64,000 bases of DNA from Acidobacteriota bacterium. GTDB taxonomy: Bacteria; Acidobacteriota; UBA6911. The notes below the pieces were generated by a model. It was not told the origin of the DNA. It was given only the letters and a program-made list of their open reading frames with translations, and did no database searches. How positions within the stretch are numbered: position 1 is the stretch's first letter; each line of letters begins with the position of its first letter. The stretch spans positions 66,862 to 130,861 of the forward strand of contig JAFGAO010000027.1 in the NCBI GenBank assembly GCA_016933615.1, given 5' to 3'. The translations under genes and the position numbers were made by a program. Below, in pieces: positions 1 through 22,842 of the stretch.

Positions 1-185
1 CGCCGGTATCCAGCCCGAACTCAAAAGGCAGATGCACGGCGTCGGTGCCGATGCGCACCTGATTGATTCTCTCGATGGTCTGCATCGCATTGGGAACCGG
101 TTTCTCCTTAGGCTCGCCGCACCCGGACAGAGCCAGAACGGCTGTCAGGCAAACGATCGACAGGATGTGCTTTTTAATTTGCAAC
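1..185 (-). CDS. Partial (N-terminal) solute-binding lipoprotein, probably an amino-acid ABC transporter substrate-binding protein; the 3' end lies beyond the window
   Basis: Reverse complement of 1-185 reads (TTG)QIKKHILSIVCLTAVLALSGCGEPKEK...VRIGTDAVHLPFEF. This gives a signal peptide with lipobox LSGC and an SBP family-3-like start. GGAGGT lies 5 nt upstream of the TTG at 185. Confidence 0.45.
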
Positions 186-301
186 TTTGACCTCCTTAAG
201 GGCAAATGAGGAGCCTCACCACTTATTCAAAAGGACACGCTGTATTCTAGCCAAATACGGACGGGGACTGAAGTGTTTTTACAATTATTTTACGGCCGGA
301 A

Positions 302-766
302 TCACGCCAATTCTTTTTCCATCACCCAGGCATCCTCGACCGGATCCGTGTAGTAATGAATTCTCGTACCCGCTATGCGGAATCCGTGCCCGTAATAGAA
401 TTGAATTGCATTCTCATTGGATTTCCGGACTTCGAGGAAACAGCGGCTGCATCCCCGGCGCAATCCCTCAGAAAAAGCCGTTTCAATCAGTTGGGTTCCG
501 ACGCCGCGGCGCTGCCACTGCGGAAATACTCCCAGTTTCAGGAGTTCCAGGCTTTCGTACAAGGCACGTGCGAGGAGAAATCCTATGAGTTCGTCCCTGT
601 TCCTGCCGGTTATCCTGACCGCCTTGCAACCGAAATACTCGGGCAATTCCTCCAGAAAACGCCGGTAATTCTCCTCTCCCCAGAAAGCGAGCCGGACCAA
701 CTCTTCGAGCGGCTTCAGGCGGTCGGCATCCGCGGGAGTAAGACAGGCCAGGTAATAGTCGGACAT
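302..766 (-). CDS. rimI: GNAT family ribosomal-protein-alanine N-acetyltransferase (RimI-like)
   Basis: The 166 aa ORF has a GNAT fold signature (QWQRRGVGTQLIE...ENAIQFYYGHGF) and sits directly downstream of tsaB as in the common tsaB-rimI pair. The ATG at 766 (MSDYYL...) aligns best with RimI N-termini. The longer start at 802 would overlap tsaB by 32 nt. Confidence 0.7.
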   Translation of the reverse strand: MSDYYLACLTPADADRLKPLEELVRLAFWGEENYRRFLEELPEYFGCKAVRITGRNRDELIGFLLARALYESLELLKLGVFPQWQRRGVGTQLIETAFSEGLRRGCSRCFLEVRKSNENAIQFYYGHGFRIAGTRIHYYTDPVEDAWVMEKELA

Positions 767-770
767 CCCG

Positions 771-1481
771 TCATCGGGTTCTGGTTTTTTTTGCAATCGC
801 ATCGGGCGGCCTGATGTAAAGCGGTTCGCACTTTATGGAGTTTCCGGATTTCCATCGCCGTTTTGCGGACAGGGCCCGACGTCCTATGGAGGCCGCCAGG
901 TAAAGATCCGTTTCGGCGGCACGGGGCCAGCCGTTGTCGGCGTCTTTACCCGGTTTTACGCCGCATATTTGAGGCTCTCCGACTAAGGTCAGGCGGCGGT
1001 TTTTTAACCTGCCCTGCAGGTCGGCAAGAAACAGCAGTACCGGTTTCCGGATTTGGCGAATCCGGCCCTCCCGGTTCCCGTACTCCGCGTAATAGACCTG
1101 GGACCTCCGGGCATTCAGAACGACCCCGACGCTTTCCTCCAGGAATCTTGCCTGGAAGGCGAGCGCTTCCATCCCCGAAATCCCGGCAAAAGGAACAGAC
1201 AACGACTGGGCAAGGCCCAATCCGGTGGCAATGCCGATCCGGATGCCCGTGAACGAGCCGGGACCGGTGCCCACAGCCACCAAGTTCAGATCCTTTAAAG
1301 TCCATCCCAAACACCGCATCAGGAAATCGATGGAGCGGATCAAGCTCGCGGAATGGTTCTCGAGACGGTTCAACTTCAACTCCGCATTCAACTCGGGTCC
1401 CTCCAGCAGGGCGATGCTGCCTCTTCTGTCGGATGTGTCAAATGCCAGGACTTTCGGCTTAGCTGCAACGGGCATGTTCAT
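771..1481 (-). CDS. tsaB: tRNA threonylcarbamoyladenosine biosynthesis protein TsaB (YeaZ)
   Basis: The ORF 771-1487 translation (KVLAFDTSDRRGSIALLEG...GTGPGSFTGIRIGIATGLGLAQSL) is typical of the TsaB/Kae1 inactive paralog. The ORF finder start at 1487 is TTG. ATG 1481 or 1475 are more likely starts. Confidence 0.8.
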   Translation of the reverse strand: MNMPVAAKPKVLAFDTSDRRGSIALLEGPELNAELKLNRLENHSASLIRSIDFLMRCLGWTLKDLNLVAVGTGPGSFTGIRIGIATGLGLAQSLSVPFAGISGMEALAFQARFLEESVGVVLNARRSQVYYAEYGNREGRIRQIRKPVLLFLADLQGRLKNRRLTLVGEPQICGVKPGKDADNGWPRAAETDLYLAASIGRRALSAKRRWKSGNSIKCEPLYIRPPDAIAKKTRTR

Positions 1482-1646
1482 TGACAACCGCAGTCGGCGG
1501 AATATATACTGCGCGCTCCTTGCTCACAGGGTTCGGCATCCACCTCTAAAACCGTATTGATCGTAGAAGGGTACGGACTGAATCGTACCAAATTTATGTG
1601 GTAGCATACATAAAAACTTGAGTTCCGTCAGGAAAAGAGGAAAAGG

Positions 1647-4148
1647 ATGGAAGACCTCACGCCCATGATGAAGCAGTACCACGAGGTCAAGCAGCGCTTC
1701 CCCGGGAAAATTGTGCTTTTCCGCCTTGGGGATTTCTATGAAATGTTCTACGAGGACGCGGTTTCAGCCTCACGGGAACTCGAAATCACCCTCACATCGA
1801 GGAATAAGGACAAAAACGGCGCCCCCATCCCGATGTGCGGCGTGCCCCACCATTCCGTCGAGGGTTACATCGCCCGATTGATGAAAAAAGGATTTAAAAT
1901 AGCGATCTGTGATCAGGTTGAGGCTCCAAACGCGAATAAAAAACTGGTTCGGCGTGAAGTCACCCGGGTTCTGACGCCGGGAACCGTTCTGGAGGAAATG
2001 CTCCTGGAGCCGAAGGAAAACAATTACCTCGGGTGTCTGTACAGCACGGAAAAAGGAATCGGGTTGGCTTTCATGGATCTGACGACATCCGATTTCATGG
2101 CCACGGAGTTTACGGGAAATGGGAGCTGGCAGAGGTCCCTGGATGAATTGACACGGTTTGCGCCGAAAGAAATCGTACTTTCAGACCGGCTGCAGGGACA
2201 GATTCGGGCAAAACTGTCCCGGGAGTGGTCGGACCGGTGGGTGGCAAGCCCTGTGGAGGACTGGATTTTTAATCAGGATTACGCCCACAGGATTCTTCTC
2301 GAACACTTCGGCCTTCCCAGCCTGGAAGGATTCGGATCGTCCGGACACTCGTTGTCCCTGTGCGCCGCGGGAGCTTTGATTCACTATCTGAAAGAAATTC
2401 AATTGCCCCGGATCGGGAAGGTCGCCAACCTCCGCTTCTTTGAATCTTCGGAATTCATGAAGCTGGATGCATCGACGGTCACGAATCTCGAATTGATACA
2501 GACTCTCGACGGATCCAGGGAAGGATCCCTTTTCTCCCTCATCGACAATACCCGTACGGGTATGGGTGCGAGACTGTTGAAATCATGGCTTTTACGGCCT
2601 TTATTAAACGTGGCGGAAATCGAGTCCCGCCAGGAATCGATCGCGTCTTTCATGTCCGACATTCCATCCCTGGACGGATTAAGGAAAAAATTCTGCGAAA
2701 TCCGTGACCTGGAACGTCTTGTAAGCCGCATCATGGCCGAAGTATCGAACCCTCGCGAGATGCTTGCCCTGCGCGATTCCCTGAGCGCAATCCCTTCCGT
2801 CAGGAACATGCTGCAATCCTATTCCGCCGGGAGGCTCGTCGAAATCCTCGAACTCATCGATCCTCTGGAGGATGTCGCTACGCTGATCCAAAGATGCATT
2901 TCGGAAAACGCGCCCGCATCCTCGAGCGAACCCGGCATCGTCCGCTCCGGCTATTCAGGCGAACTCGATGAACTCCGCGAGATCCGGCACAGCGGGAAGG
3001 GATATATCGCGGCCATGGAGTCGAGGGAGAGGGAAAAAACCGGGATCCAATCTCTCAAGATCAAGTTCAACAACGTTTTCGGCTACTTCATCGAGGTAAC
3101 CAAGGCCAACCTGTCGCTTGTTCCCAACCAGTATCTGCGAAAACAGACCCTCGTGAACTGTGAACGTTTCGTTACCGAAGAGCTCCAGCAGTATGAGGAG
3201 AAAGTCCTCCGGGCCGAAGAACGCATTGCATCTCTGGAGAGGGAGATATTCATCGAGTTGAGGAAAAGAGTCGGGCGCGAGGGGGCCCGGATTCAGAAAA
3301 CGGCCCGTCTCCTGGGAGAACTGGACGTTTATGCCGCCCTGTCCGAAACCGCACTGAAAAACAGCTACAACCGCCCGGCGTTGACCGAAGGGGATGAACT
3401 GTATATCCGACAGGGGCGGCACCCCGTGGTTGAAAAGCAGAGCCTTCCTTTCATACCCAACGATCTGTATATGAACGTGGAAACGAACCGCCTGATCCTG
3501 CTGACGGGACCGAACATGGGCGGCAAGTCCACATACCTGCGGCAGGCGGCGCTGATAGTCATCCTTGCGCAAATGGGTTCCTTCGTCCCGGCCCGGGAAG
3601 CGCGCATCGGGTGCGTGGACCGCATATACACGCGAGTGGGCGCTTCGGACAATCTGGCCAAAGGCCGTTCCACATTTATGGTTGAAATGATCGAAACCGC
3701 GAATATCCTGAATACGGCCACGAGCCGGAGCCTGATTCTCCTGGACGAAGTCGGGCGAGGCACAGCTACCTTTGACGGCCTCTCCCTTGCCTGGGCGATC
3801 GCGGAGTTTCTCGTGGCCGGCCCGTGTCTGAAACCGAAAACTCTTTTCGCCACGCATTATCATGAGCTGACCAAACTGGCGGCGGTTCATTCCGCCGTGA
3901 AAAATTACTGCATGACCATTCAGGAAGCCGGTGGAGACATAATATTCCTGCGCAGGGTCATGCCGGGGGTCGCGGATAAAAGTTATGGAATCGAAGTTGC
4001 CCGCCTCGCGGGAATGCCGCAGGAGGTTCTTCGCAGGGCTTCGGAAATATTGGAACGGCTCGAGAGGAAGGAAATAGACCTGACGGGCTCTTCACGCAAA
4101 CGGGCAACGGATGCGGTGCCGGATGAAATACAAAAACCGCTCTTTTAA
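1647..4148 (+). CDS. mutS: DNA mismatch repair protein MutS
   Basis: The 833 aa protein has the N-terminal mismatch-binding motif (PMMKQY...GDFYEMFYEDA), a Walker A (GPNMGGKST) and the C-terminal MutS domain. A strong SD (AGAGGAAAAGG) precedes ATG 1647. Confidence 0.95.
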   Translation: MEDLTPMMKQYHEVKQRFPGKIVLFRLGDFYEMFYEDAVSASRELEITLTSRNKDKNGAPIPMCGVPHHSVEGYIARLMKKGFKIAICDQVEAPNANKKLVRREVTRVLTPGTVLEEMLLEPKENNYLGCLYSTEKGIGLAFMDLTTSDFMATEFTGNGSWQRSLDELTRFAPKEIVLSDRLQGQIRAKLSREWSDRWVASPVEDWIFNQDYAHRILLEHFGLPSLEGFGSSGHSLSLCAAGALIHYLKEIQLPRIGKVANLRFFESSEFMKLDASTVTNLELIQTLDGSREGSLFSLIDNTRTGMGARLLKSWLLRPLLNVAEIESRQESIASFMSDIPSLDGLRKKFCEIRDLERLVSRIMAEVSNPREMLALRDSLSAIPSVRNMLQSYSAGRLVEILELIDPLEDVATLIQRCISENAPASSSEPGIVRSGYSGELDELREIRHSGKGYIAAMESREREKTGIQSLKIKFNNVFGYFIEVTKANLSLVPNQYLRKQTLVNCERFVTEELQQYEEKVLRAEERIASLEREIFIELRKRVGREGARIQKTARLLGELDVYAALSETALKNSYNRPALTEGDELYIRQGRHPVVEKQSLPFIPNDLYMNVETNRLILLTGPNMGGKSTYLRQAALIVILAQMGSFVPAREARIGCVDRIYTRVGASDNLAKGRSTFMVEMIETANILNTATSRSLILLDEVGRGTATFDGLSLAWAIAEFLVAGPCLKPKTLFATHYHELTKLAAVHSAVKNYCMTIQEAGGDIIFLRRVMPGVADKSYGIEVARLAGMPQEVLRRASEILERLERKEIDLTGSSRKRATDAVPDEIQKPLF

Positions 4149-4152
4149 CATC

Positions 4153-5946
4153 ATGCAGACTATCGGCCTCCGTTTTTCTTCGCCCCTGGCGCACGTCCTG
4201 ATTCTGGCGGCGGTCTGCCTGCCTTACTGCCTCCGCCTGGGCGCTTCTTCCCTATGGGACGCAAGCGAATCCTACTACGCGGAAACCTCCAGGGAAATGC
4301 TGGCTTCCGGCAATTACCTCGCGCCTCATTTCAATTTCGAGCCCAGGGCTCAAAAACCCCCGCTGACGTACTGGGCGATTCTCGCTTCCTACAAGCTGTT
4401 CGGGGTCGGCGAATTTTCCGTACGGTTCCCGGGATCCGCTGCCGCGGTCATGGTCATTCTTTTTTCCTATGCGACGGCGCGCTTTCTTTTCAATTCACGG
4501 ATCGCCCTGATGGCTGCCGTGATCACGGGCACCACCGCCAGGGTACTGATTCTCGCGCGGCGCCTGCCCATCGATATGCTCCTGCTGTTTTTCCTGACGG
4601 GGGCTTTTCTATTCCTGGCAAGGGCGATACAGACACGAAGACGCGCCTACTGGGTTTTTTTCTATCTATTCGTAGGGGCGGGGTTTATGACCAAAGGCCC
4701 GGTAGCGCTGGTTATTCCCGCAGCCACGTACCTGATCTGGGCGCTCTGCAACGGAAGATTCAGTGTTAGAGGCGTGCACCCCTTCCTGGGCCTGGGCATC
4801 CTGGCGTTCGTCATTCTTCCCTGGTACGTTCTGGTCTTCCATGCATACGGCTGGACCTATATCGAAACTTTCTTTTTAAAGGACAACCTGGGGCGCTTTC
4901 TGTCCGATTCTTTCGGACCGGCCAGAGGCCCTCTGTACTATTTCCCCGTTTTTGCGGTCGACTTCTTCCCCTGGTCCTTCCCGGCGGCAGCGGCCATGTA
5001 TTTCCTTTGGCGGCACAGGGAGCAATGGCGTCCTGTGCAAAGCCTTTCCTTCGGGCTGCCGCTCCTTTGGTGTCTTTTCATATTCCTTTTTTTTTCGGTC
5101 TCGAAAAACAAGCAGGAGTATTACATCGCCCCCATGTATCCGGTGGCCGCCGTAATCCTGGCTGCGGTTCTGTATAAAAGCTTTGCCGGAATGGCCGCCG
5201 CCATCCGCAGAAAAATTTCCTCGCGGCATTTCCCGGACGCCGGTAAGGCGCCGGCTTCCAGTTTGAATTCTCCTGAAGGGCGCAAGGCACCCGAAGAGAC
5301 GAGCCCGATTTCCGGATGGAAATGGATCTGCCTGATCCTGGGCATCCTTCTTTTTGCATTTTCCATACTGTTATTTTTTATTCTACACTTCTTTATGCCG
5401 CATCTTCCCTCCGTGTTACACTATGGTCCGTCTCTGATTATTGCCGGGGCCGCCCTTTTCACCGTCGGATGCGCCTTAAGACGGAAAATGAGCCTCTGTT
5501 TTCCCGCAATAGCGGCTTCCATGTGGATTGTTTTTACGGCGGGGGTTGTTTATTATTTCCCCGCCCTGGAAAACTTCCGGCCCGTCAAAAGCTTCTGTAA
5601 ACAGATAGAGGCAAACGCGCACGGCGATTTCCAGGCGGGTTATTACGGCGTCACGGTCCCGAGCATGGTTTTCTATTTGAAAAGGCCGATCTTCGAGGAA
5701 TATGACGCGGCGTCCATGATAGGCAGATTTCAGTCCGGCAATCCCGTATTTTGTGTTTTGACCGCCCGGGATCATGCTTTCTTCACGGAAAATTTCGATC
5801 TCGATCTTCCCGTCCTGGACCGCAGCCCCAGGTTCTCCATTAAACTGAAAATGGTCCTCAACGGGGGCTATGCGCCCGGCGAGGAGCTGCTCCTGGTATC
5901 GAATCGCCCAATTTCAGCATCCGCACCCGAAATGGCGGCTCCTTAG
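4153..5946 (+). CDS. ArnT-like GT-C membrane glycosyltransferase (GT83 / PMT_2 family, 4-amino-4-deoxy-L-arabinose transferase-like)
   Basis: The N-terminal signature WDASESYYAETSREMLASGNYLAPHFNFEPRAQKPPLTYW is characteristic of ArnT/PMT_2 family enzymes and is followed by more than 10 predicted TM helices. ATG 4153 lies 5 nt after the mutS stop. An alternative start at 4123 would overlap mutS. Confidence 0.75.
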   Translation: MQTIGLRFSSPLAHVLILAAVCLPYCLRLGASSLWDASESYYAETSREMLASGNYLAPHFNFEPRAQKPPLTYWAILASYKLFGVGEFSVRFPGSAAAVMVILFSYATARFLFNSRIALMAAVITGTTARVLILARRLPIDMLLLFFLTGAFLFLARAIQTRRRAYWVFFYLFVGAGFMTKGPVALVIPAATYLIWALCNGRFSVRGVHPFLGLGILAFVILPWYVLVFHAYGWTYIETFFLKDNLGRFLSDSFGPARGPLYYFPVFAVDFFPWSFPAAAAMYFLWRHREQWRPVQSLSFGLPLLWCLFIFLFFSVSKNKQEYYIAPMYPVAAVILAAVLYKSFAGMAAAIRRKISSRHFPDAGKAPASSLNSPEGRKAPEETSPISGWKWICLILGILLFAFSILLFFILHFFMPHLPSVLHYGPSLIIAGAALFTVGCALRRKMSLCFPAIAASMWIVFTAGVVYYFPALENFRPVKSFCKQIEANAHGDFQAGYYGVTVPSMVFYLKRPIFEEYDAASMIGRFQSGNPVFCVLTARDHAFFTENFDLDLPVLDRSPRFSIKLKMVLNGGYAPGEELLLVSNRPISASAPEMAAP

Positions 5947-5947
5947 G

Positions 5948-6928
5948 ATGAAAAAGAAAGCACTGCCGTTCATTAAAATCGCGATCACGGTTCTGCTGTT
6001 CGCCTATATTTTTCAAAACGTCGATTTTGAAAATTTCGGGAGAACCCTCCGGAATGCCCGGCCCGACATGCTGATCCTGTCCTTTGCACTGATCTGGGCA
6101 GGGCACTATGTATGCATCCTGCGCTGGCGCCTTTTGATCAAGCCTCTGATGCCTGTGCCTTCATTGAACCAGCTTTTCGGCATTTACTGTATCGGCCTTT
6201 TCTTCAATCTGACTTTCCCCACCGTCATCGGAGGGGATGTCGTGAAAATCTATTACATCGGGAGGAATTCCGAATCCTACTCTCAAAGCTTTGCGTCCAC
6301 TTTCCTGGACCGGGATGCCGGTATGCTGGCGATGCTGATCATTGCCTGCGCCGCGATTGTCGTTTATCCCGTCTCCGTTCCGGGAATCGCGATATCCGTC
6401 ATTGTCTTCGGGGCGTTTGCCGCATTTTTACTGGGAAACATGTGCCTGTTCACGCCCCGATTTCACGGCATATTGAACCGCTGCATGAAACGTCTCGGTG
6501 CGGCCAGGATGGGAAGAAAAGCCGACAGGGTCGCCGAGGCGTTTCATAGGATCGGGAAGCACCGGTTTGTTCTTGCGGTTTCATTGCTGATTTCATTCGT
6601 CAACCAGCTGCTGGTCATAATTTCCGTCTGGGTCACGGCCGTCGGCCTTCGCCTTGATATACCTTTTTATTATTTCCTGGTTTTCGTACCCGTCATCACG
6701 CTCATTTCCATGATACCGGCCAGCCTGAACGGAATGGGATTGAGGGAATACGCGTTCATGGGCCTCTTCGGCGCACTCGGCGCCGAACCTTCGTCCTGCA
6801 TCGCGCTCGGATTGGTGACCTCGATTCTGATCATTCTCTCTTCACTTCCGGGCGGCATCGTTTATATTTTCTACAGAAACCGCGGCGATCGACGCCGGTT
6901 TGAGAGACTGGAAACTGAATTTTCATGA
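5948..6928 (+). CDS. UPF0104 / flippase-like (lysylphosphatidylglycerol-synthase TM-region-like) membrane protein
   Basis: MKKKALPFIKIAITVLLFAYIFQNVDFENFGRTLRNARPDML... is the typical N-terminus of the UPF0104 (PF03706) family, and the protein is polytopic. ATG 5948 lies 1 nt after the ArnT-like stop (TAGgATG). Confidence 0.65.
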   Translation: MKKKALPFIKIAITVLLFAYIFQNVDFENFGRTLRNARPDMLILSFALIWAGHYVCILRWRLLIKPLMPVPSLNQLFGIYCIGLFFNLTFPTVIGGDVVKIYYIGRNSESYSQSFASTFLDRDAGMLAMLIIACAAIVVYPVSVPGIAISVIVFGAFAAFLLGNMCLFTPRFHGILNRCMKRLGAARMGRKADRVAEAFHRIGKHRFVLAVSLLISFVNQLLVIISVWVTAVGLRLDIPFYYFLVFVPVITLISMIPASLNGMGLREYAFMGLFGALGAEPSSCIALGLVTSILIILSSLPGGIVYIFYRNRGDRRRFERLETEFS

Positions 6929-7920
6929 ACGAGAAGGTTTCAATCATAGTCCCGGTTTACAACGAGCTGGAAAACCTAGAGGCCCTGTTAAAAGCGCTTC
7001 TGGATGCGATGGAATCGACTGGAGAAGACTTCGAAGTTCTTTTTGTCGACGACGGCAGCACGGACGGAAGCAGGGATTTTCTGGAGTCGCTGCCGGAAAG
7101 GGATCCCCGCATCAGGGTTATCATATTTCGAAGAAACTTCGGCCAGACGGCGGCCATGACTGCGGGTTTCGATTATGCTTCGGGCTCCATCCTCATCCCC
7201 ATCGATGCGGATATGCAGAACGACCCGAGGGACATCCCGGCGGTATTGTCCAAGCTCAGGGAGGGATACGATGTTGTCAGCTGCTGGAGGAGGAACCGGC
7301 AGGATCCTTGGCTGAGCCGGAAAGTGCCGTCCAAGCTGGCCAACGGCCTCATATCCTTCATAAGCGGGGTCAGGCTTCATGACTACGGGTGCACCTTGAA
7401 GGGATATCGGCGCGAGGTCGTCCAGCACATCCGTTTGTACGGAGAAATGCACCGGTTCATTCCCGTGTACGCCTTCTGGGCCGGTGCGCGCGTTGCGGAA
7501 ATTCCGGTAAGCCACAATCCGAGAAAAGCCGGAGTCAGCAAATACGGCCTTGGCCGAACGTTCAAGGTTATACTGGACTTGATTACGGTCAAAATGCTCG
7601 GCAGTTATTCCACAAAACCGATGTACTTCTTCGGCGGCATTGGAATGGTCTCTTGCGGAGCCGGCATTCTATGCGCCCTGCTGACATTGCTTGAGAAATA
7701 CTCGAGCGGCGTCAAGGCGCACAACAATCCGCTGCTGCTGCTTTCCGTATTTCTTTTTATTATAGGAATTCAATTTGTATTGATGGGGCTTGTGGCGGAA
7801 CTGGTCATCCGGACCTATTTCGAATCTCAAAACAAGGTCCCCTACATAATCCGTCACATCCGGGGCCAAAATGACGGGGTGCAACCGGATCCGCCCGAAA
7901 ACGTCGGCACTCCCGGTTAA
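6925..7920 (+). CDS. GT2 family glycosyltransferase, polyprenyl-phosphate sugar synthase type (ArnC/GtrB/DPM-synthase-like) with two C-terminal TM helices
   Basis: IIVPVYNELENL...FVDDGSTDGS...DADMQNDP is the GT2 DxD catalytic core, and two C-terminal TM helices follow as in ArnC/GtrB. The start overlaps the upstream stop in an ATGA arrangement. Confidence 0.8.
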   Translation: MNEKVSIIVPVYNELENLEALLKALLDAMESTGEDFEVLFVDDGSTDGSRDFLESLPERDPRIRVIIFRRNFGQTAAMTAGFDYASGSILIPIDADMQNDPRDIPAVLSKLREGYDVVSCWRRNRQDPWLSRKVPSKLANGLISFISGVRLHDYGCTLKGYRREVVQHIRLYGEMHRFIPVYAFWAGARVAEIPVSHNPRKAGVSKYGLGRTFKVILDLITVKMLGSYSTKPMYFFGGIGMVSCGAGILCALLTLLEKYSSGVKAHNNPLLLLSVFLFIIGIQFVLMGLVAELVIRTYFESQNKVPYIIRHIRGQNDGVQPDPPENVGTPG

Positions 7921-7930
7921 GGAGCATCCA

Positions 7931-8704
7931 TTGTTCGGCAGCCACTTCGAGTTTGAACCTCATTCCCTGGTCAACTTCACGGGAGGGGGCGGCAAAACGG
8001 CCCTGATATTCCGGCTTTTGGAGGAATTTTCGGCGCAGGGTTCCGTGTTGTACACCACGACAACCAGGATTCATCCGCCGGATCCGGGAAATAATGTGGC
8101 GGTTATTAAAAGCGCCAATCTGCAACTGCTGAAATTTCTCGTCACAGAGGCGATTCGGAATTGTTCCGAAAAAAAATATAAGCTTGTCGCCACCCGGCAA
8201 TTCATGGAACCCGACCTGTTGAAAGGCGTTCCCCCCGATTTTCTTGATTCCGTGGACCGCGGCAAACTCGCGATTCTTTTGAATGAAGCGGACGGGGCCG
8301 CGAGGTTTTCATTAAAGCTGCCCCGGGATGGAGAGCCTGTGCTTATGGATCGGGCGGATTACCTTGTTGCCGTGATCGGGATCGATTGCCTGCATCAACC
8401 GCTGGGTCCCGATGTCGTGTTCCGGTTCCAGACGCTGGCGCAACGTTTTTCCCTCAAGGCCGGCGACCGGATCACACCCCGGCTGGCCGCCGGCATCCTC
8501 ATGCATCCCCGGGGCGTGTGCAAAGACTTTCGGAAAGGAACAACCCTGATCCCTTTCATCAATAAAGTCGACACCCCCGGCCAGGACGCCGATGCCAGGG
8601 CTCTTGCATCCCACATCCTTCAAAACGTGAACTTCCCCGTAAAGAAGGTTGTATGGGGCAGCGTTGTTCACGGCAGGGTCGGATCCGTATCCGCCGAATC
8701 ATAG
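7931..8704 (+). CDS. YqeC-like P-loop protein (selenium-dependent molybdenum hydroxylase accessory family, TIGR03172-like)
   Basis: It has a P-loop (FTGGGGKTALIFRL) and the motifs NEADGA and INKVD at the spacing seen in YqeC. The TTG start at 7931 is preceded by TAAGGAG, which overlaps the upstream stop. This is a family-level call from memory. Confidence 0.5.
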   Translation: MFGSHFEFEPHSLVNFTGGGGKTALIFRLLEEFSAQGSVLYTTTTRIHPPDPGNNVAVIKSANLQLLKFLVTEAIRNCSEKKYKLVATRQFMEPDLLKGVPPDFLDSVDRGKLAILLNEADGAARFSLKLPRDGEPVLMDRADYLVAVIGIDCLHQPLGPDVVFRFQTLAQRFSLKAGDRITPRLAAGILMHPRGVCKDFRKGTTLIPFINKVDTPGQDADARALASHILQNVNFPVKKVVWGSVVHGRVGSVSAES

Positions 8705-8760
8705 AAAAGGACCGTAGTAACACGAATCTTGATCCGGAACCTTGTATATCAGACTATTTT

Positions 8761-9588
8761 ATGATGCCAGGCGTCCATCGGCTGACAAGCAAAAACAACC
8801 CTCTTCTAAAGCGGATACGGCTTCTTGCGTCCGCTTCCCGCAGGGCGCCGGAAGAGGTCGTGCTGGCGGAAGGAACACGCGTTCTGGAGGAGGCTGTCCG
8901 ATCCGGATATTCTTTCGAGGCGGTTGTATCGACCGTGGAATTCGGCTCCAATTCAAGGGAGGCCGCTCTGCTGCGGAGCCTGAAATCCAGGCGGGTGCCA
9001 TTCTACCAGGTCGGGCAGGGGATTTTTCGGTCCGTTTCCTGCCTCAAATCCCCTCAGGGCGCGATCGCTCTCGTCAAGGCGCCGCGCGCCGCTCTTCCGC
9101 CCCAAAAGGACCCCGACGCTCTTGTGCTCTACGCCTGCGGCATTCAGGATCCGGGCAATCTGGGCACGCTGATCCGGACCGCCGCCGCCGCCGGAGCGTC
9201 TCTTTTCTGCACTTCGAAAGAGACGGTTTCGGCCGGCAATCCCAAGGCAATACGGTCGAGCGCCGGCGCTTTTTTCCATCTCAAACCCGTGGAACATGTG
9301 GATTTTCCAGACTTTCTGGACTACTGCGTAAACCATTCGATCCGGCTCTACCGTACCGATGCCCGCGAAGGCGTGCCGCACACGGAATCGGACCTGAAGT
9401 CCCCCTGCGCCATACTGCTCGGAAATGAAGGAAGCGGAATGAACAAGAACGACTATCCCGGCCTGCCGGCCATACGGATCCCGCTGGCCGCTGGGATTGA
9501 TTCCCTGAATGTGGCCCTCGCCGGAGCAGTCATACTTTTTGAAGCCTCCAGGCAAAGGTCCGCCTTCTCCAGGACAGCGCACGACTGA
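8761..9588 (+). CDS. TrmH/SpoU family RNA 2'-O-methyltransferase (RlmB-like)
   Basis: The SpoU methylase motifs are present (VLYACGIQDPGNLGTLIRTAAAAGA; ILLGNEGSGM; SLNVALAGAVILFEA), with an N-terminal substrate-binding domain. ATG 8761 (MMPGV) is chosen over the longer ORF that starts at 8653. Confidence 0.75.
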   Translation: MMPGVHRLTSKNNPLLKRIRLLASASRRAPEEVVLAEGTRVLEEAVRSGYSFEAVVSTVEFGSNSREAALLRSLKSRRVPFYQVGQGIFRSVSCLKSPQGAIALVKAPRAALPPQKDPDALVLYACGIQDPGNLGTLIRTAAAAGASLFCTSKETVSAGNPKAIRSSAGAFFHLKPVEHVDFPDFLDYCVNHSIRLYRTDAREGVPHTESDLKSPCAILLGNEGSGMNKNDYPGLPAIRIPLAAGIDSLNVALAGAVILFEASRQRSAFSRTAHD

Positions 9589-9594
9589 CGCATC

Positions 9595-10944
9595 ATGACA
9601 AAAAACTTATTCCCCGAATCCGAAGACACGCGATCGAATGCGGATGCGCCGCTGGCGGAGAGGCTGCGTCCTCGATCCCTGGATGAAATCGTGGGTCAGC
9701 AGCACCTCATCGGCAAAGGCAAAGTCCTGCGTATCATGGCGGAACAGGATCGTCTGGCATCCATTATCCTATGGGGCCCTCCGGGAACGGGGAAAACCAC
9801 CCTGGCGCGAATCCTGGCGAGGCAGACGCGCTCCCCCTTTGTCTCCTACAGCGCGGTTTTGTCGGGAATCAAGGAGATCAAAACGGTCATGGCGGAGGCG
9901 GAAACGCTCTTTCGCGCCTCCCGGGGGAGAACCGTTGTTTTTGTGGATGAAATCCACCGTTTCAACAAGGCCCAGCAGGATGCCTTCCTTCCCTATGTGG
10001 AATCGGGCGTGATCGCACTGATCGGCGCTACGACCGAGAATCCATCCTTCGAAGTCATCGGGCCGTTGCTGTCCCGGTGCAAGGTCTACGTGCTGAATCC
10101 TCTCAGCCCGGAAGAAACCGAGGAGATTCTGAAACGTGCCTTGACGGAACCACAACTCGGACTCGGCGCCGATGAAATTTCCAGCCCGGACGCAGTGCTG
10201 CGCCGGATCTCCCTGTACGCGAACGGAGATGCACGGGTCGCCCTCAATATTCTGGAGCTTTCCGCTTCCCTTGCCGTGCGCCGGGCGGGCAAACTTCCGG
10301 CGGTTCTCACGTCGGAGGATCTGGAGTCGGCACTGCAGCAGAAGATACCGCGGTACGACAAAGACGGGGAGGAGCATTACAATCTCATTTCCGCCCTGCA
10401 TAAATCGATGCGCAACAGCGATCCGGACGCGTCGCTCTACTGGCTCGGCCGCATGCTGGAAGCGGGGGAGGACCCTGTTTATATCGCGCGGCGGATGGTA
10501 CGTTTCGCCTCGGAGGATGTCGGACTTGCCGATGTCCGGGCTCTGAATGTCGCCCTCAACGCGGCCGATGCGGTCCGCCTGGTAGGCTTGCCGGAGTGCA
10601 AACTGGCCCTCGCGCAGGCCGCCGTCTATCTTTCGGTGGCTCCCAAATCGAATTCCCTCTATACCGCCTACGGGGCCGTGGTCTCCGATGTGGAGAACTC
10701 CTCCAATGAGCCGCCGCCCCTGCATATCCGCAACGCACCGACTTCCCTGATGAAGGATCTGGGCTACGGAAAGGATTATCAATATGCCCACAATTTGAAG
10801 GAAAAGGTGGCCGATATGCAGTGCCTGCCTGAAACTCTTAAAGGAAGGCGGTATTACCACCCGTCCGATCAGGGGATGGAGCGGCGAATCCGGGAAATTC
10901 TTGCCGAAATAAAGCAGAGGAAACAGCGCAGTTCAAAAAGATAG
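9595..10944 (+). CDS. rarA: Replication-associated recombination protein A (AAA+ ATPase RarA/MgsA)
   Basis: AAA+ motifs are present (SIILWGPPGTGKTTLAR; VVFVDEIHRFNKAQQD), followed by the MgsA C-terminal helical domain. Confidence 0.9.
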   Translation: MTKNLFPESEDTRSNADAPLAERLRPRSLDEIVGQQHLIGKGKVLRIMAEQDRLASIILWGPPGTGKTTLARILARQTRSPFVSYSAVLSGIKEIKTVMAEAETLFRASRGRTVVFVDEIHRFNKAQQDAFLPYVESGVIALIGATTENPSFEVIGPLLSRCKVYVLNPLSPEETEEILKRALTEPQLGLGADEISSPDAVLRRISLYANGDARVALNILELSASLAVRRAGKLPAVLTSEDLESALQQKIPRYDKDGEEHYNLISALHKSMRNSDPDASLYWLGRMLEAGEDPVYIARRMVRFASEDVGLADVRALNVALNAADAVRLVGLPECKLALAQAAVYLSVAPKSNSLYTAYGAVVSDVENSSNEPPPLHIRNAPTSLMKDLGYGKDYQYAHNLKEKVADMQCLPETLKGRRYYHPSDQGMERRIREILAEIKQRKQRSSKR

Positions 10945-10952
10945 ATAGCCCG

Positions 10953-11795
10953 TTAAGCCCACAAATAATAGGAAAGGACCGCCAGGGCGAGAACAATGCG
11001 GTAAACAACGAAAGGAGTGAAACTGCTTTTCCGGATATACCGCAGAAAGTAACGGATGCAGAAAAATCCGGTTGCGGCCGCGAAAAGAACTCCCGTCAAT
11101 AAAATCAACCATGGCTCTTCAACCGTTTCTAAACCCGGAGTCAGCCGGAACCTGATCAGTTTGAAACCTTCCAGCATCCCGGCGCCCACAATAACGGGTG
11201 TCGACAGAAGAAATGAGAATCTTGCAGCGCTGCTGCGGTCGCAGTCGCGGTACAACGCAGTTGTCATCGTTATGCCGCTTCTGCTAACTCCCGGAATCAA
11301 TGCAACCGCCTGGCTGATGCCGATCCATATGGAGTCGGCCCATGTGAAGGAAGTGATTGTGCGCCGCTTTTCTCCTTTTTTATCGGCGATATAGAGAAGG
11401 AGTGCAAAAATGATCAGTGTAAAAACCGTAACCAGAGGAGACCTCAGTTTGTTTTCAATATAATTTTCGAAGGTCAGCCCCGCAATCACTGCCGGGATGG
11501 TCGCAACCACCAGGAACCACGCCAGCTTCCGGTCCGGATTGCCCATGGGGCGTCGCTCCAGTAGCCCCAGGACCGCCTCCCTCGCCAGACGTATCCAGTC
11601 TTTCCTGAAAAATGCCAGCACGGACACGGCGGTTCCTACGTGAACCGCCACGTCAAAAGCGATACCCTGGGGTTCCCATCCGGTAAACCACGGAACAAGA
11701 ATGAGATGCGCGGAGCTGCTGATGGGCAGAAATTCCGTGAGCCCCTGGATGGTTCCCAGTATCGCGGCTGAAATCAACTCCATCAAACCGACCAT
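10953..11795 (-). CDS. uppP: Undecaprenyl-diphosphatase UppP (BacA)
   Basis: The conserved motifs GLTEFLPISSSAHLIL and PGVSRSG are present in an 8-TM protein. ATG 11795 is preceded by GGGGGTGG, and the ORF finder start at 11804 is GTG. The gene ends 8 bp from the rarA stop on the opposite strand. Confidence 0.9.
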   Translation of the reverse strand: MVGLMELISAAILGTIQGLTEFLPISSSAHLILVPWFTGWEPQGIAFDVAVHVGTAVSVLAFFRKDWIRLAREAVLGLLERRPMGNPDRKLAWFLVVATIPAVIAGLTFENYIENKLRSPLVTVFTLIIFALLLYIADKKGEKRRTITSFTWADSIWIGISQAVALIPGVSRSGITMTTALYRDCDRSSAARFSFLLSTPVIVGAGMLEGFKLIRFRLTPGLETVEEPWLILLTGVLFAAATGFFCIRYFLRYIRKSSFTPFVVYRIVLALAVLSYYLWA

Positions 11796-12003
11796 AAAAA
11801 CCACCCCCGCTCCGGTAAAAGTTGCGCAATCATACCAGTATTGACTGAAGATTGAAAATTGAAGATTCCGTATGAATGTTTGAACGCGTATTGAAAGCTG
11901 ACATAAAAGCCGCCGAATCGGGTGGAAATCCGGCTTTCCCGGTATTATCCTTTCGAATTCAGCATTGTTAAAGAAAACAGCCGGTCAAAAACCAGGAGTG
12001 TTC

Positions 12004-12888
12004 ATGTCAAAGCCAAAAAAAGTTCTGAAACTGGGCCTGCCCAAGGGGAGTCTTCAGGAATCGACGCTTGAGCTGTTTCGCAAGGCGGGCATTCGCGTCT
12101 TCTCCAGCGACAGATCCTACTTTCCCTACTGCGACGACGAAGAAATAGAAATCATGCTGCTACGGTCCCAGGAAATGGCCAAATATGTCGAGGACGGGCT
12201 GTTTGACGCCGGGATCACGGGCCAGGACTGGATCCTTGAAACCGGCGCCAGCGTCAAGCAGGTCTGTGAACTCATTTACGCCAAGAGCGGATTCAAACCC
12301 GTCCGGTGGGTGCTGGCCGTGCCTGAAAGCTCCAAAATACGCTCCATTGGCGACCTCGAAGGCAAAACGGTCGCCACGGAACTGGTCCATTGCGTCAAGA
12401 AATATTTTTCACAAAAAAGGGTAAAGGCAGATATCGAATATTCCTGGGGCGCGACGGAAGCGAAAGCCGGCATTCTGGTGGATGCAATTGTCGAGTTGAC
12501 CGAAACGGGTCGGTCTCTCAAGGCCAATCAGCTGCGTATCTTGGAGGATGTTCTGTCTTCGACCACCCGGTTTATCGCCAACAGGAAATCGTGGCAAAAT
12601 CCCTGGAAACGGCAAAAAATGGAGAATATTGCCATCCTGCTCCAGGGAGCTCTTGCCGCGGAGGGAATGGTCGGATTGAAGATGAACCTCAAGGAAGCCG
12701 ACCTGGATAAAATTATGAGGATCCTTCCCTCGCTCAAGCGGCCTACGATCAGCCCTCTGACTATTTCAGGGTGGATGGCACTGGAGGTTGTCGTGGATGA
12801 AAAAATCGTCAAAAAGATGATTCCGGAGCTGAAAAGAGCCGGAGCTCAGGGAATCATCGAATACCCGCTGAACAAGCTCATTGCATAA
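12004..12888 (+). CDS. hisG: ATP phosphoribosyltransferase, long form (HisG)
   Basis: [17 protein letters not shown]...[12 protein letters not shown]... is the HisG catalytic core, and a C-terminal regulatory domain follows. AGGAG lies 5 nt upstream of ATG 12004. Confidence 0.9.
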
Positions 12889-12969
12889 TGGGGGCGCTTG
12901 AAATAATCCGCCGCCTGGGATAATTTATGGACCCTACGGATTGTATCCGAACAAAGCCTGGAGCGACCC

Positions 12970-14508
12970 ATTTACCGCGAAAATATTCTAATTCTTGATT
13001 TTGGATCGCAGTACACGCAACTGATTGGGCGGCGTGTGCGCGAACTTGCCGTATACAGCGAAATCGTGCCCTACTACGATGCGCTCGAAAAGATTCGAGC
13101 CTGCAGACCCTCCGGAATTATCCTTTCCGGCGGGCCGAACTCCGTTTGCAGGGAGGGAAGCCCCTCCCTCCCCCCCGAATTTTTCGAACTGGGTATCCCG
13201 GTGCTCGGAATCTGCTACGGATTCCAGCTTCTGGCCAAGTGCCTGGGAGGGAAAACCATTCCAGGCGGCGACCGGCGGGAATTCGGAAAAGCCATGGCCG
13301 TCGTCCATGAAGCCGGCGTGCTGTTCAAGAACCTTCCCGAACAGTTTCAGGTTTGGATGAGTCACGGCGACCGGGTGGAGCGGATCCCCCCCGGATTCAA
13401 AATCCTGGCAAAATCCGGCGAACTGAATGCCGCGGCGGCGGATGAAAGCAAAAAGATATGGGGCTTGCAGTTTCACCCGGAAGTGGCGCACACGCCTCAT
13501 GGGAAAGAAATCCTCGAAAACTTCCTTACCGTCGCGTGCGGATGCAAGCAGAACTGGACCGTGACTTCGTTCATTGCATCTACCGTGGAGTCCATTAAGA
13601 CCCGGGTGGGGTCCGAAAGCGCCATCTGCGCGCTCAGCGGCGGCGTGGACTCGACCGTCGCCGCGCTGCTGGTCCACGAAGCCGTAGGCGACAGGCTGAC
13701 ATGCGTTTTCGTCAACAACGGCCTTCTGCGAAAGAATGAGTTCGATACCGTTCTCGAGAATTACCGGCAACGCCTGCACCTCAAGGTGCAGGGAGTGGAT
13801 GCCAGCGCCCGCTTCCTGGCCCTTCTCGAAGGGGTTGAAGATCCCGAAAAGAAAAGAAAAATTATTGGGAAGGAATTCATCAGGGTTTTTGAAGAAGAAG
13901 CCCGCAAGGTAGGGAATCCTCCTTTCCTGGTCCAGGGCACTCTTTACCCGGACGTGATCGAGTCGGTTTCCGTGCGAGGGCCTTCCGCCGTCATCAAATC
14001 ACATCACAATGTAGGCGGACTGCCGGAGGAGATGCATCTGAAGCTGATCGAACCCCTTCGTGAGCTTTTCAAGGACGAAGTTCGAAAGGTGGGGGAAACT
14101 CTGGGGATGGATCAAAGATTCGTGCACCGCCATCCCTTTCCGGGCCCCGGGCTTGCCGTGCGCATTCTCGGTTCCGTAACCGCGGAGCGCCTGTCCGTGC
14201 TCAGAGAAGCGGATGCCATCGTGCAGCAGGAAATCGAAAGCGCCGGGCTGCTGCAGCAGCTGTGGCAGGCGTTTGCCGTTTTGTTGCCGGTTCAGAGCGT
14301 GGGAGTTATGGGAGACGACCGCACATACGAGAATGTGGCGGCTCTGCGCATTGTGACCAGCCTGGACGGCATGACGGCCGACTGGGCAAAAATTCCCTAC
14401 AAAGTGATCGAAAGGATTGCCAACCGCATCGTGAATGAAGTGCGCGGGATAAACCGTGTCGTGTACGATGTTACCTCGAAACCTCCTGGAACCATTGAAT
14501 GGGAGTAG
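12970..14508 (+). CDS. guaA: GMP synthase (glutamine-hydrolysing) GuaA; start codon unresolved
   Basis: A class-I GATase domain ([20 protein letters not shown]...GICYGFQ) is followed by a PP-loop ATP pyrophosphatase (SGGVDSTV) and the GMP synthase C-terminal domain. The conserved ILILDFG segment lies upstream of the first canonical start (GTG 13036). There is no in-frame ATG, GTG or TTG back to the stop at 12904. ATT at 12970 is used here as a placeholder start. Confidence 0.9.
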
Positions 14509-21416: not shown

Positions 21417-22829
21417 TTACCGCGCACCTTCTGTCTTCTGAATCCGGATATCGTTCCGAACCATTCCTCTCTTGGAAACCTCCTGGATCAGATCCTCGAT
21501 GAAATTAATGAATTTCCGCATGCGGGCCATTATTTCGGATGAATTGTTCGAGATCGCGATTGTTTCCATAAAGGTTTCAAAACCGGCCCAATCCCGGTAC
21601 ATGAGCGAGGACAACGATTTCTCCTTAAAAGATGCCAGCCGCTCGATGATCTTGTTCGCATCCGGGACGGTTTCATTTTCAGACAGCTCGATCAGCCACT
21701 GTCTCAGGCTCCATAAGTCCTGACGGATCTGGTCGCCCATCGCGATGCGCTCCACCCTTTTCGGGAACAGCTTCTGTTCGTCGAAGTGAGGATCCACGGC
21801 ATTTACCAGGCTCAGGATGCCGCTCTGGAAGCAGTTCAGGAGCAGGCCGTGGCTGTTTTCCATCCGCGCATAAACATTGGCGGGTTCCATTTCCCGGGCA
21901 ACGAAAACAAGTTCCCTGGACATGACTTTTCGGGATTCGGTTTTGAGCGAATATGCAACCAGATCCGCGGCATTCCTCAGCTCCTGTCCCGTACCTTTAC
22001 CTTTAAGCATGCGCGCCTTGAGAAAGTTCGCTAAATTCTCCATCTCCTCATGAAGGAGCGAAAAAACAACCAGGTTGTGCTTCAAGGTTCTATCGTGCTC
22101 GAGATCGCCGGATACGAAGTTCAAATATTTAAGAAAGCGGAATATGAACAGTATCGCCAGGGCGACATTGCGCTGCAGCTGCTCGTCCCTGATGCCGCGG
22201 AGCACTTCGGTCAGGTGCTTATTCTCTATGAGGTCGTACTGCATCCGGAATCTCTGGCTCATGAGCATGTCGACATAACGGCAATTTTTCAGCTCCTGCC
22301 GGTAGCTCCTTCCCAGGGTGAGAAAAAGCTGAAAACCCGGATTCGGAAGCCGCTGGAAGGCATCGATCGAAATTCGGATATCGTTCAAGGAATCCAGAAG
22401 CTGCGCCATGCTGTCTACGGGCGAGATCTGGGCCAGAAACCTGTTTGTGTGAGAATCCAGGATTCTTTCTTTTCTTATCTTGTCCTCTATGACCTTCTCG
22501 AGTTCGAATTCCTCCGCGTGCCCGACGCTGAGCACGTCGCACGCGTAAGTTTCGCAGATCTGAACGGCGCTGCGGATGATCTTGATTTCGGAAAGGAAGC
22601 TGCGGCCCAGCAGGCTTTCCTTTTCAGAATCCGCCAGGGGAAGATGGTCCATATTCAGGAAAGACCGGATTCCCTTGAGCCATGTCTCCAGCCCGAATAG
22701 GCTGTCGATCGCTCCCCGTTCATGAACGTGTTTAATCCATGAGGAAAGATTTTCATTCCCGGCAACGATTTCGGCGCGCAATGCCTCCAGGAACGAATTG
22801 CGCGCTTTCGGGGATTTCAGTACCGGCAT
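21417..22829 (-). CDS. Hypothetical protein, about 470 aa, predicted all-alpha, no recognised domain
   Basis: This is a long ORF (21417-22898) with lower GC (about 48-50%) than its neighbours. There are no Walker or other catalytic motifs. A possible Rx4H motif occurs at ARMENSH. ATG 22829 (MPVLKSP) avoids overlap with the upstream small ORF. Confidence 0.5.
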   Translation of the reverse strand: MPVLKSPKARNSFLEALRAEIVAGNENLSSWIKHVHERGAIDSLFGLETWLKGIRSFLNMDHLPLADSEKESLLGRSFLSEIKIIRSAVQICETYACDVLSVGHAEEFELEKVIEDKIRKERILDSHTNRFLAQISPVDSMAQLLDSLNDIRISIDAFQRLPNPGFQLFLTLGRSYRQELKNCRYVDMLMSQRFRMQYDLIENKHLTEVLRGIRDEQLQRNVALAILFIFRFLKYLNFVSGDLEHDRTLKHNLVVFSLLHEEMENLANFLKARMLKGKGTGQELRNAADLVAYSLKTESRKVMSRELVFVAREMEPANVYARMENSHGLLLNCFQSGILSLVNAVDPHFDEQKLFPKRVERIAMGDQIRQDLWSLRQWLIELSENETVPDANKIIERLASFKEKSLSSLMYRDWAGFETFMETIAISNNSSEIMARMRKFINFIEDLIQEVSKRGMVRNDIRIQKTEGAR

Positions 22830-22842
22830 AAAAGACTCCAGC

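Follow-up and report, generated by a model that had tools for sequence, protein, structure and literature searches.

A predicted ArnC/ArnT-type envelope glycosylation trio, with a YqeC-family gene as its neighbour, in a conserved mutS-to-rarA gene string of uncultured Acidobacteriota

We analysed a 64,000-nucleotide stretch of DNA (contig JAFGAO010000027.1, positions 66,862 to 130,861; hereafter the window) from the metagenome-assembled genome (MAG) of an uncultured member of the Acidobacteriota, and in particular four forward-strand genes at 4153-8704. They encode, in order, a GT-C glycosyltransferase that resembles ArnT, a UPF0104 membrane protein, a family 2 glycosyltransferase (GT2) that resembles ArnC, and a P-loop NTPase of the YqeC family. 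The reading that we favour, with a probability of roughly 0.7, is that the first three genes specify an envelope glycosylation pathway of the ArnC/ArnT type, and that yqeC is a syntenic, co-expressed neighbour rather than a fourth component. The conserved unit at this locus is larger than these four genes. It is a string of seven, namely mutS, the GT-C gene, the UPF0104 gene, the GT2 gene, yqeC, a gene for a SpoU-type methyltransferase and rarA, bounded by a convergent uppP gene, and it includes genes without a plausible link to glycosylation. The trio is familiar in kind and does not overturn current understanding.

The extent of the string became apparent from a survey of related loci. An alignment of the GT-C protein was scanned against one genome per GTDB species, which gave 44 loci, all in MAGs of Acidobacteriota, and the window's proteins were mapped onto these loci by tblastn. 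The genes for GT-C, UPF0104, GT2 and YqeC occur in the same order in 21 of the 44 loci, with GT-C identities down to 40%, so that the co-conservation expected by a first-pass annotation of this DNA is indeed seen in the gene neighbourhoods. Wherever the contig reaches far enough in this set of 21, rimI and tsaB lie divergently upstream, mutS lies directly upstream, and the SpoU gene and rarA, followed by convergent uppP, lie downstream. Among the related loci generally, at least 28 have mutS ahead of the GT-C gene, 24 have the SpoU gene after yqeC, and about 24 keep the position of uppP. The median gaps are 41.5 nt between mutS and the GT-C gene, -4 nt (an overlap) on either side of the UPF0104 gene, 10.5 nt between the GT2 gene and yqeC, 4.5 nt between yqeC and the SpoU gene, and -4 nt between the latter and rarA. 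As about 25 related genomes share this gene order, with junctions that are likewise short or overlapping, the packing is not due to chance. Within the trio, identity across loci is highest for GT2 (59-85%) and lowest for GT-C (29-69%); for RarA it is 69-85%.

In the window, the GT-C gene (4153..5946, + strand, 597 amino acids) begins with ATG 4153, which we read from the sequence as lying 4 nt beyond the mutS stop, and ends with TAG 5944-5946. The single base g at 5947 then separates it from the UPF0104 gene (5948..6928, + strand, 326 amino acids) in a TAG-g-ATG junction. The TGA stop of the UPF0104 gene (6926-6928) forms an ATGA overlap with the ATG (6925-6927) of the GT2 gene (6925..7920, + strand, 331 amino acids), and the TAA stop of the GT2 gene (7918-7920) is spanned by the Shine-Dalgarno sequence (taaggag) ahead of the TTG start, at 7931, of yqeC (7931..8704, + strand, 257 amino acids, stop TAG 8702-8704). 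Such an arrangement is usual for yqeC, which starts with TTG in 16 of 25 loci and with GTG in 5, usually behind a GGAG or GAGG site with the stop of the preceding gene inside it. A gap of 56 nt separates yqeC from the SpoU gene in the window, and one of 6 nt separates the SpoU gene from rarA. The first-pass annotation had described the four co-directional genes and the junctions between them, all of which can be read in the sequence, and its four family assignments were right according to Pfam and NCBIfam. Two of its statements about the boundaries fared less well. The four genes had been taken as a module that ends in yqeC, which is refuted by the tight seven-gene string of the related loci. 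They had also been described as fused onto the 3′ end of mutS, and this abutment is specific to the present genome: the spacer between mutS and the GT-C gene is about 100 nt in the closest relatives (L007, 9900-10001; L001, 5175-5271), versus 4 nt here (window 4111-4155). In the public annotation, the start is placed at 4123 instead, which gives a GT-C protein of 607 amino acids and a 26-nt overlap with mutS. We rejected this start in favour of 4153 upon alignment with the same two relatives, whose start matches the codon at 4153.

The GT2 protein matches Glycos_transf_2 (PF00535) in Pfam at 3.5e-37. Its best NCBIfam model is ArnC (NF007986), at 221.3 bits and thus below that model's cut-off of 529, and its second best is PgfS, at 154 bits. 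Its matches in the PDB are ArnC (9hwj, 4.5e-62), GtrB (sll0501, 1.4e-38) and an archaeal dolichyl-phosphate mannose synthase (1.3e-18). It is 37% identical to Escherichia coli ArnC over the full length, and consists of an N-terminal cytoplasmic GT-A domain and two C-terminal transmembrane segments (residues 238-256 and 272-290). The DXD motif is present as DADMQN at residues 94-99, and P10, Y12, E14 and D43 align to residues with which ArnC contacts UDP. R122, R132 and R200 align to ArnC R128, R137 and R205; according to a structural study from 2025, R128 and R137 hold undecaprenyl phosphate, and R205 is the arginine of the donor diphosphate (PMC12690121). Since the DXD motif, the arginines and the UDP contacts of ArnC are kept along with the two C-terminal transmembrane helices, we conclude that the GT2 protein is a polyprenyl-phosphate glycosyltransferase. 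To judge from the aligned residues, its donor is most likely a UDP-sugar; the sugar pocket of ArnC itself has been modelled only by simulation and offers no specificity code (PMC12690121).

The GT-C protein matches PMT_2 (3e-26) and PMT (1e-14) in Pfam. It scores 147.7 bits against the NCBIfam model for ArnT (NF009784), which misses the cut-off of 567 and covers only residues 14-345, and it matches the ArnT structure 5ezm at 1.6e-25 by phmmer. Its identity to E. coli ArnT is 29% over about 320 amino acids, these being its first 320 residues. The likeness to ArnT extends further in the AlphaFold2 (AF2) model (mean predicted local distance difference test score, pLDDT, 77.7; predicted template-modelling score, pTM, 0.82), for which the top Foldseek match is Cupriavidus metallidurans ArnT (5f15) at E 1e-18, with template-modelling (TM) scores of 0.69/0.75 and 614 aligned columns that span the whole length. 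The next matches are ALG12, STT3 and EmbB at 1e-5, and protein O-mannosyltransferases (PMTs) at 1e-3. The model consists of a core that passes the membrane several times and, at the C-terminus, a periplasmic alpha/beta domain that can be superimposed on that of ArnT. We also scored the conservation of individual residues in 18 homologues. ArnT K85, D158, R270 and Y345 correspond to K68, D141, R248 and Y324 of the GT-C protein, and all four are invariant. K85 and Y345 are, with R270, residues of ArnT that bind the lipid phosphate; the roles of R270 and D158 are as we presume them from the ArnT structure. The first protein of the trio is thus a GT-C enzyme, as the first pass had classified it, with ArnT as the closest fold (CAZy type GT83), and we predict it to be a periplasmic transferase that uses a polyprenyl-phosphate-sugar donor.

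As a separate observation, the survey also returned paralogues of the GT-C protein (30-46% identical) in loci L016, L033, L035, L041 and L043 (match at 10001-11600 in each). These lie in unrelated contexts that lack mutS, UPF0104, GT2 and yqeC. In L033 and L041, a weak match to MocA-like nucleotidyltransferases (E ~1e-6) is found on the opposite strand just downstream of the paralogue.

The UPF0104 protein belongs to the family of the MprF flippase domain (also 'PplT'), with a match to LPG_synthase_TM (PF03706) at 1e-41 (143.8 bits; cut-off 33.4) and one to the 'flippase-like' model TIGR00374 at 85.8 bits (cut-off 43.2). Its hydropathy profile indicates about eight hydrophobic segments, and a search of PDB sequences returned no match. 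The gene overlaps or abuts both of its neighbours in 24-25 loci. By analogy with MprF, we predict that the protein is a flippase for a lipid-linked sugar.

Taken together, these assignments suggest a pathway of three steps. The GT2 enzyme would move a sugar from a UDP-sugar onto undecaprenyl phosphate at the cytoplasmic face of the membrane, as the conservation of ArnC residues suggests. The UPF0104 protein may then carry the lipid-linked sugar to the periplasmic leaflet, a step for which we rely on homology to the MprF flippase domain and on genomic association only. Finally, the ArnT-like GT-C enzyme would pass the sugar to an acceptor that faces the periplasm. This logic of synthase, flippase and GT-C transferase had already been proposed in the first pass and fits the sequence evidence, with acceptor, sugar and flippase activity staying at the level of inference. 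The window carries genes for an LpxL-like lipid A acyltransferase (23235-24425, + strand), for BamD (YfiO; 50862-51920, - strand) and for a protein with an MlaD domain (58755-59978, + strand), from which we conclude that the organism is diderm and can be expected to make lipid A. Because these envelope genes are carried and the whole predicted fold of the GT-C protein, including its periplasmic domain, is like that of ArnT, we take lipid A or the core of lipopolysaccharide (LPS) to be the most likely acceptor.

The resemblance to Arn proteins does not mean that the trio is the pathway that modifies lipid A with 4-amino-4-deoxy-L-arabinose (Ara4N), with UPF0104 in place of ArnE and ArnF. It is true that ArnC is the best sequence match of the GT2 protein, and that ArnT is the best match of the GT-C protein by sequence as well as by Foldseek. 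However, both proteins miss the respective equivalog cut-offs (529 and 567 bits) by a wide margin, the cluster has neither a deformylase nor a deacetylase, and the zinc-site residues and D55 of ArnT are not conserved in the GT-C protein (see below). In addition, tblastn searches of the window and the 44 loci with E. coli ArnA, ArnB, ArnD, ArnE and ArnF found nothing except Fmt: the ArnA-like match in the window (54205-55155, - strand) is the gene for methionyl-tRNA formyltransferase, fmt, which is adjoined by def (55159-55668, - strand). Given the missed cut-offs and the absence of ArnA, ArnB, ArnD, ArnE and ArnF, we reject a true Arn pathway, which we regard as very unlikely. The GT-C and GT2 proteins are not Arn orthologues, and the trio does not represent the Ara4N pathway as such. 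A different acceptor is implied if the GT-C enzyme O-glycosylates proteins as PMTs do, in which case the trio would glycosylate periplasmic proteins in the manner of Ppm1/Pmt or PgfS/PgfM. The Pfam matches of the GT-C protein to PMT_2 and PMT, its public annotation as 'glycosyltransferase family 39' and the rank of PgfS as the second-best NCBIfam model of the GT2 protein all agree with this idea, and the first pass had named protein O-glycosylation, in view of the PMT_2 signature, among several candidate routes; in this it was too open. We do not take that signature as an argument for it, since in the fold search ArnT leads Pmt1, Pmt2 and Pmt4 by about 15 orders of magnitude (1e-18 versus 1.6e-3 or weaker), and the PMT alignments span only about 260-445 columns. 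Moreover, the protein has no MIR domain, the periplasmic domain at its C-terminus can be aligned with the one in ArnT, and no PMT sequence in the PDB was matched at E<=0.01. We therefore consider protein O-glycosylation unlikely.

It is also conceivable that the GT2 and UPF0104 proteins make and flip a terminal membrane glycolipid, and that the GT-C enzyme acts independently of them. Enzymes of the GT-C class take their sugars from polyprenyl-phosphate-linked donors, which counts against such a separation, as does the fact that the trio's genes overlap or abut in 24-25 loci. The GT2 protein, too, has the architecture of a polyprenyl-phosphate glycosyltransferase and every undecaprenyl-phosphate-binding residue of ArnC that we checked. 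On the other hand, some lineages keep the GT-C gene without that for GT2, or the genes for GT-C and GT2 without that for UPF0104. Furthermore, for glycolipid operons of the GpgSDF (PMC12713373) and HexSDF (PMC10128005) type, it is UPF0104 proteins that have been proposed as flippases. The glycosyltransferase of the former operon, GpgS, is a member of family GT4, however, and not a GT2 polyprenyl-phosphate glycosyltransferase (PMC12713373), and overall a glycolipid-only role for these two proteins seems to us most improbable.

We now turn to the fourth gene. Its product matches the YqeC family in Pfam (PF19842) at 3.7e-31 and scores 139.5 bits against TIGR03172, well above the cut-off of 73. 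Its identity is 27% to E. coli YqeC and 22-27% to canonical YqeCs, and it keeps all invariants of the family when compared with the YqeCs of E. coli, Morganella, Aeromonas, Serratia and Comamonadaceae: the Walker A motif GxGGKT, TTTT, EADG, K129, E135-P136, R165, H192 and N211. Its motifs include GGGGKT at residues 18-23, NEADG at 118-122 (an ExxG Walker B motif; window 8282-8296) and NKVD at 211-214 (window 8561-8572). NKVD, which is of the type that confers guanine specificity, is found throughout the acidobacterial clade of YqeC, whereas canonical YqeCs have IN[RGTQ] at this place; the NKVD and ExxG Walker B motifs together resemble those of G3E metallochaperone GTPases. The AF2 model (pLDDT 90.4) is that of a soluble protein, with best Foldseek matches to IcmF/MeaB, UreG, MipZ, ParF and signal recognition particle (SRP) GTPases that are weak (E 3e-3 to 1e-2, TM ~0.4), and a PDB sequence search gave nothing useful. 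The protein is a divergent but genuine YqeC-family NTPase, probably of the SIMIBI class (named for SRP, MinD and BioD).

The surroundings of yqeC in this acidobacterial lineage are atypical. Canonical yqeC loci adjoin genes of molybdenum hydroxylases, as in the E. coli order yqeB-yqeC-mocA-ygfK-ssnA-ygfM-xdhD and in two other canonical loci, where yqeC lies beside genes for Ald_Xan_dh/MoCoBD, YgfK-like and amidohydrolase proteins. By contrast, no homologue of YqeB, XdhC, MocA or XdhD was found in the window or within 10 kb of yqeC in the approximately 25 of the 44 loci that have it; selD was not searched for. The selenium-cofactor trait is marked only by the pair of YqeB and YqeC (PMC5029168), and a yqeC deletion in Clostridioides difficile had no phenotype, which leaves the role of the protein in selenium-dependent purine catabolism unclear (PMC11448449). 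Most likely, the YqeC-like protein keeps a role in cofactor maturation for molybdenum enzymes that are encoded elsewhere.

Alternatively, yqeC could be a real fourth component, for example one that regulates or chaperones the GT2 or flippase step in a GTP-dependent manner and was recruited from a family of molybdenum-cofactor (Moco) maturation proteins. Four loci that act as natural knock-outs speak against this. The GT2 gene is reduced to a remnant of 40 residues in L004 (12735-12860) and is gone in L015 and L028 (between about 12696 and 12800), and the UPF0104 gene is gone in L010 (11713-11876). Nevertheless, yqeC stays in all four, and the genes for GT-C, SpoU and RarA are likewise intact. 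Conversely, yqeC is absent from deeper lineages that retain glycosylation genes: L036 and L037 (GT-C 34-35% identical) keep mutS and the genes for GT-C, UPF0104 and GT2, and L038 (which also keeps mutS), L032, L034 and L044 keep those for GT-C and GT2 but have neither UPF0104 nor yqeC. Features that would favour recruitment are the position of the GT2 stop within the Shine-Dalgarno site of yqeC (TTG or GTG starts in 21 of 25 loci; gap of 10.5 nt in the median), the separation of yqeC from yqeB, xdhC, mocA and molybdenum-hydroxylase genes, the divergence of the clade (22-27% identity to canonical YqeC, with an NKVD motif that canonical members do not have) and the unclear role of YqeC itself, as the C. 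difficile deletion illustrates. Yet the 4.5-nt gap between yqeC and the SpoU gene is as tight as that between the GT2 gene and yqeC, the unrelated SpoU and rarA genes overlap too, and the protein passes the YqeC equivalog cut-off with all invariants of its family. We read yqeC as a co-expressed neighbour because it varies independently of the GT2 and UPF0104 genes and lies just as close to the SpoU methyltransferase gene; that it is a working part of the trio is in our view distinctly unlikely. The bolder proposal that this YqeC-family NTPase has left molybdenum-hydroxylase maturation, and works with the glycosylation module or in envelope or lipid-carrier metabolism next to uppP, we regard as a long shot.

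A further argument against a fourth component comes from sister lineages, where an XdhC-family Moco chaperone fills the slot of yqeC. Four distant loci without yqeC (L032, 7942-8820; L034, 4993-5907; L038, 14264-15103; L044, 4325-5137) have a gene of the XdhC/CoxI family one or two genes downstream of the GT2 gene. Such a gene lies upstream of the SpoU gene in L038, in L044 and in a metagenome locus, L050 (3645-4436), with rarA present too in L038 and L050 and none seen in L044. This is the slot that yqeC fills in the window's lineage. The XdhC/CoxI-family proteins of these loci do not have the C-terminal domain that is specific to YqeB. The presence of two families of molybdenum-cofactor maturation proteins in the same slot fits with yqeC keeping a cofactor-related role. 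We also considered an ancestral, adjacent pair of XdhC and YqeC genes in this slot ahead of the SpoU gene, for which an XdhC alignment was scanned against metagenome contigs. Of the 80 loci that resulted, 34 have a MocA-like gene directly downstream of the XdhC relative, and none has YqeC, GT2 or GT-C, so an ancestral XdhC-YqeC pair is not directly supported.

Several observations weigh against a working glycosylation trio with yqeC as a mere neighbour. Some concern residues of the GT-C protein. The 'D-E' motif of the first periplasmic loop (EL1) is D55/E56 in ArnT, and its Asp is regarded as universal in GT-C enzymes (PMC7801869), but in the HMMER alignment D55 corresponds to S38 (window 4258-4269 encodes residues 36-39), and the 18 homologues have N or S at this position. 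ArnT E56 corresponds to E39, which is invariant in the 18 homologues, and D36, two residues upstream of S38, is D in 15 of the 18 and N in 3; a shift of the loop by one residue could place E39 or D36 at the catalytic position of D55. The zinc ligands of ArnT, E84, H265 and H267, are replaced by Q67, K243 and N245, of which Q67 and N245 are invariant, while K243 varies among K, R, S and N. At the level of the module, some lineages have lost UPF0104 and others GT2, so that the trio is not strictly interdependent at this locus. Flippase activity has never been demonstrated experimentally for stand-alone UPF0104 proteins, and is unverified even for GpgF (PMC12713373). For yqeC, the coupling to the GT2 gene through the overlap of Shine-Dalgarno sequence and stop is conserved, and, unlike in canonical loci, there is no molybdenum-hydroxylase, yqeB, mocA or xdhC gene within 10 kb in the approximately 25 genomes or anywhere in the window. 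Finally, the relatives on which the comparisons draw are all MAGs.

Among known systems, the trio is most readily compared with ArnC/ArnE-F/ArnT of E. coli and Salmonella, and with the ArnT of C. metallidurans. The logic is shared, in that a GT2 polyprenyl-phosphate glycosyltransferase is combined with a flippase (here a predicted one) and with a periplasmic transferase of the GT-C type, with 37% identity between the GT2 protein and ArnC, and with the whole fold of ArnT and equivalents of its K85, D158, R270 and Y345 in the GT-C protein. The window's trio differs in having no arnA, arnB or arnD, and thus no route to 4-deoxy-4-formamido-L-arabinose (Ara4FN) and no deformylase. The flippase of the Arn system is the small ArnE/F pair, which resembles small multidrug resistance (SMR) proteins, whereas a UPF0104 protein is the predicted flippase here. 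Also, the Arn genes form a regulated resistance operon, and the trio lies in a housekeeping string after mutS. In archaea, a conserved neighbourhood combines UPF0104 (arCOG00899), a PMT/STT3-like GT-C protein (arCOG00563) and an AglD-like GT2 protein (arCOG00897), AglD being a fusion of GT2 and UPF0104 (Makarova et al. 2015, PMC5898192). The three families and their predicted roles as lipid-phosphate-sugar synthase, flippase and external transferase are the same as here, but the archaeal systems use dolichol carriers and N-glycan or S-layer acceptors, in contrast to the diderm bacterial host, the three separate genes and the specifically ArnT-like GT-C protein of the window.

GpgSDF of Pseudomonas aeruginosa (PMC12713373) and HexSDF of C. 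difficile (PMC10128005) share with the trio a UPF0104/COG0392 protein, the proposed flippase, beside a glycosyltransferase. The systems differ from the trio in that they glycosylate a final membrane lipid, include a deacetylase and have no GT-C enzyme; in GpgSDF, the GT4 enzyme GpgS acts on phosphatidylglycerol (PMC12713373). GtrA/GtrB/GtrC and CsbB/GtcA/YfhO likewise consist of a synthase for C55-phosphate-linked sugar, a flippase and a periplasmic or extracellular GT-C enzyme, and the window's GT2 protein matches GtrB, as noted above. However, their flippases are of the GtrA family, GtrC and YfhO belong to other GT-C families, and the acceptors are O-antigen or teichoic acid. With respect to yqeC, the window's protein resembles the YqeC of the selenium-dependent molybdenum hydroxylase trait (TIGR03172) in passing the curated cut-off, in its invariants and in its similar length, and differs in its position between a GT2 gene and an RNA methyltransferase gene in a housekeeping string, which is found throughout one acidobacterial lineage.

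If the pathway works as we propose, a widespread lineage of uncultured Acidobacteriota would have a conserved system for envelope glycosylation that is probably constitutive, and this would be a bacterial case in which a UPF0104 protein, and not ArnE/F or GtrA, flips a polyprenyl-phosphate-sugar. As the flippase activity of stand-alone UPF0104 proteins has yet to be shown directly, a clean three-gene module would be a useful test bed. Similarly, a lineage in which YqeC occurs apart from yqeB and molybdenum-hydroxylase genes helps in asking whether the role of YqeC is more general. If the protein did turn out to work with the glycosylation module or in lipid-carrier metabolism, this would be the first functional handle on a family of unknown biochemistry.

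The window otherwise appears as ordinary chromosome, with rimI, tsaB, mutS, hisG, guaA, dnaE, mutL, hisS, alaS, valS, fmt and def among its genes, which were named partly from Pfam and NCBIfam matches and partly from the translations of open reading frames (ORFs). Four ORFs of 271-565 amino acids, at 21417-22898 (-), 33631-35208 (-), 52601-54298 (+) and 49795-50610 (+), had no Pfam match at E<=1e-4. An Rfam scan of positions 1-14000 found no RNA family. Exact-sequence look-ups returned no contig for the window's YqeC and, for the GT-C sequence, only a Logan contig of 5.7 kb that added no context.

A sigma-70-like candidate promoter (TTGACA-18-TATACT; 1481..1510, + strand) is located in the divergent intergenic region between tsaB and mutS. 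It matches the consensus hexamers at 11 of 12 positions and is the best, and the only good, promoter-like site in 1400-12000; as this is a match to consensus only, we regard it as a candidate promoter of the whole string from mutS to rarA. No terminator-like intergenic site was found on the + strand from mutS to rarA. Both results are weak evidence, since acidobacterial promoters may differ.

The remaining genes of the string and its boundary are as follows. The first gene, mutS (1647..4148, + strand, stop TAA), encodes all five MutS domains according to Pfam, and its product scores 1032 bits against NF003810 (cut-off 480). The gene after yqeC (8761..9588, + strand) encodes a SpoU/TrmH-family RNA 2′-O-methyltransferase with an N-terminal substrate-binding domain (Pfam: SpoU_methylase 1.9e-30, MRM3-like_sub_bind 1.9e-11). 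The last gene of the string (9595..10944, + strand) is, to judge from its translation, probably rarA (mgsA)-like, for a replication-associated recombination ATPase. Convergent with the string is uppP (bacA; 10953..11804, - strand), whose product, an undecaprenyl-diphosphate phosphatase, scores 302.7 bits against NF001393 (cut-off 284). Since this enzyme regenerates the lipid carrier that the GT2 enzyme would use, uppP is possibly a functional neighbour of the trio.

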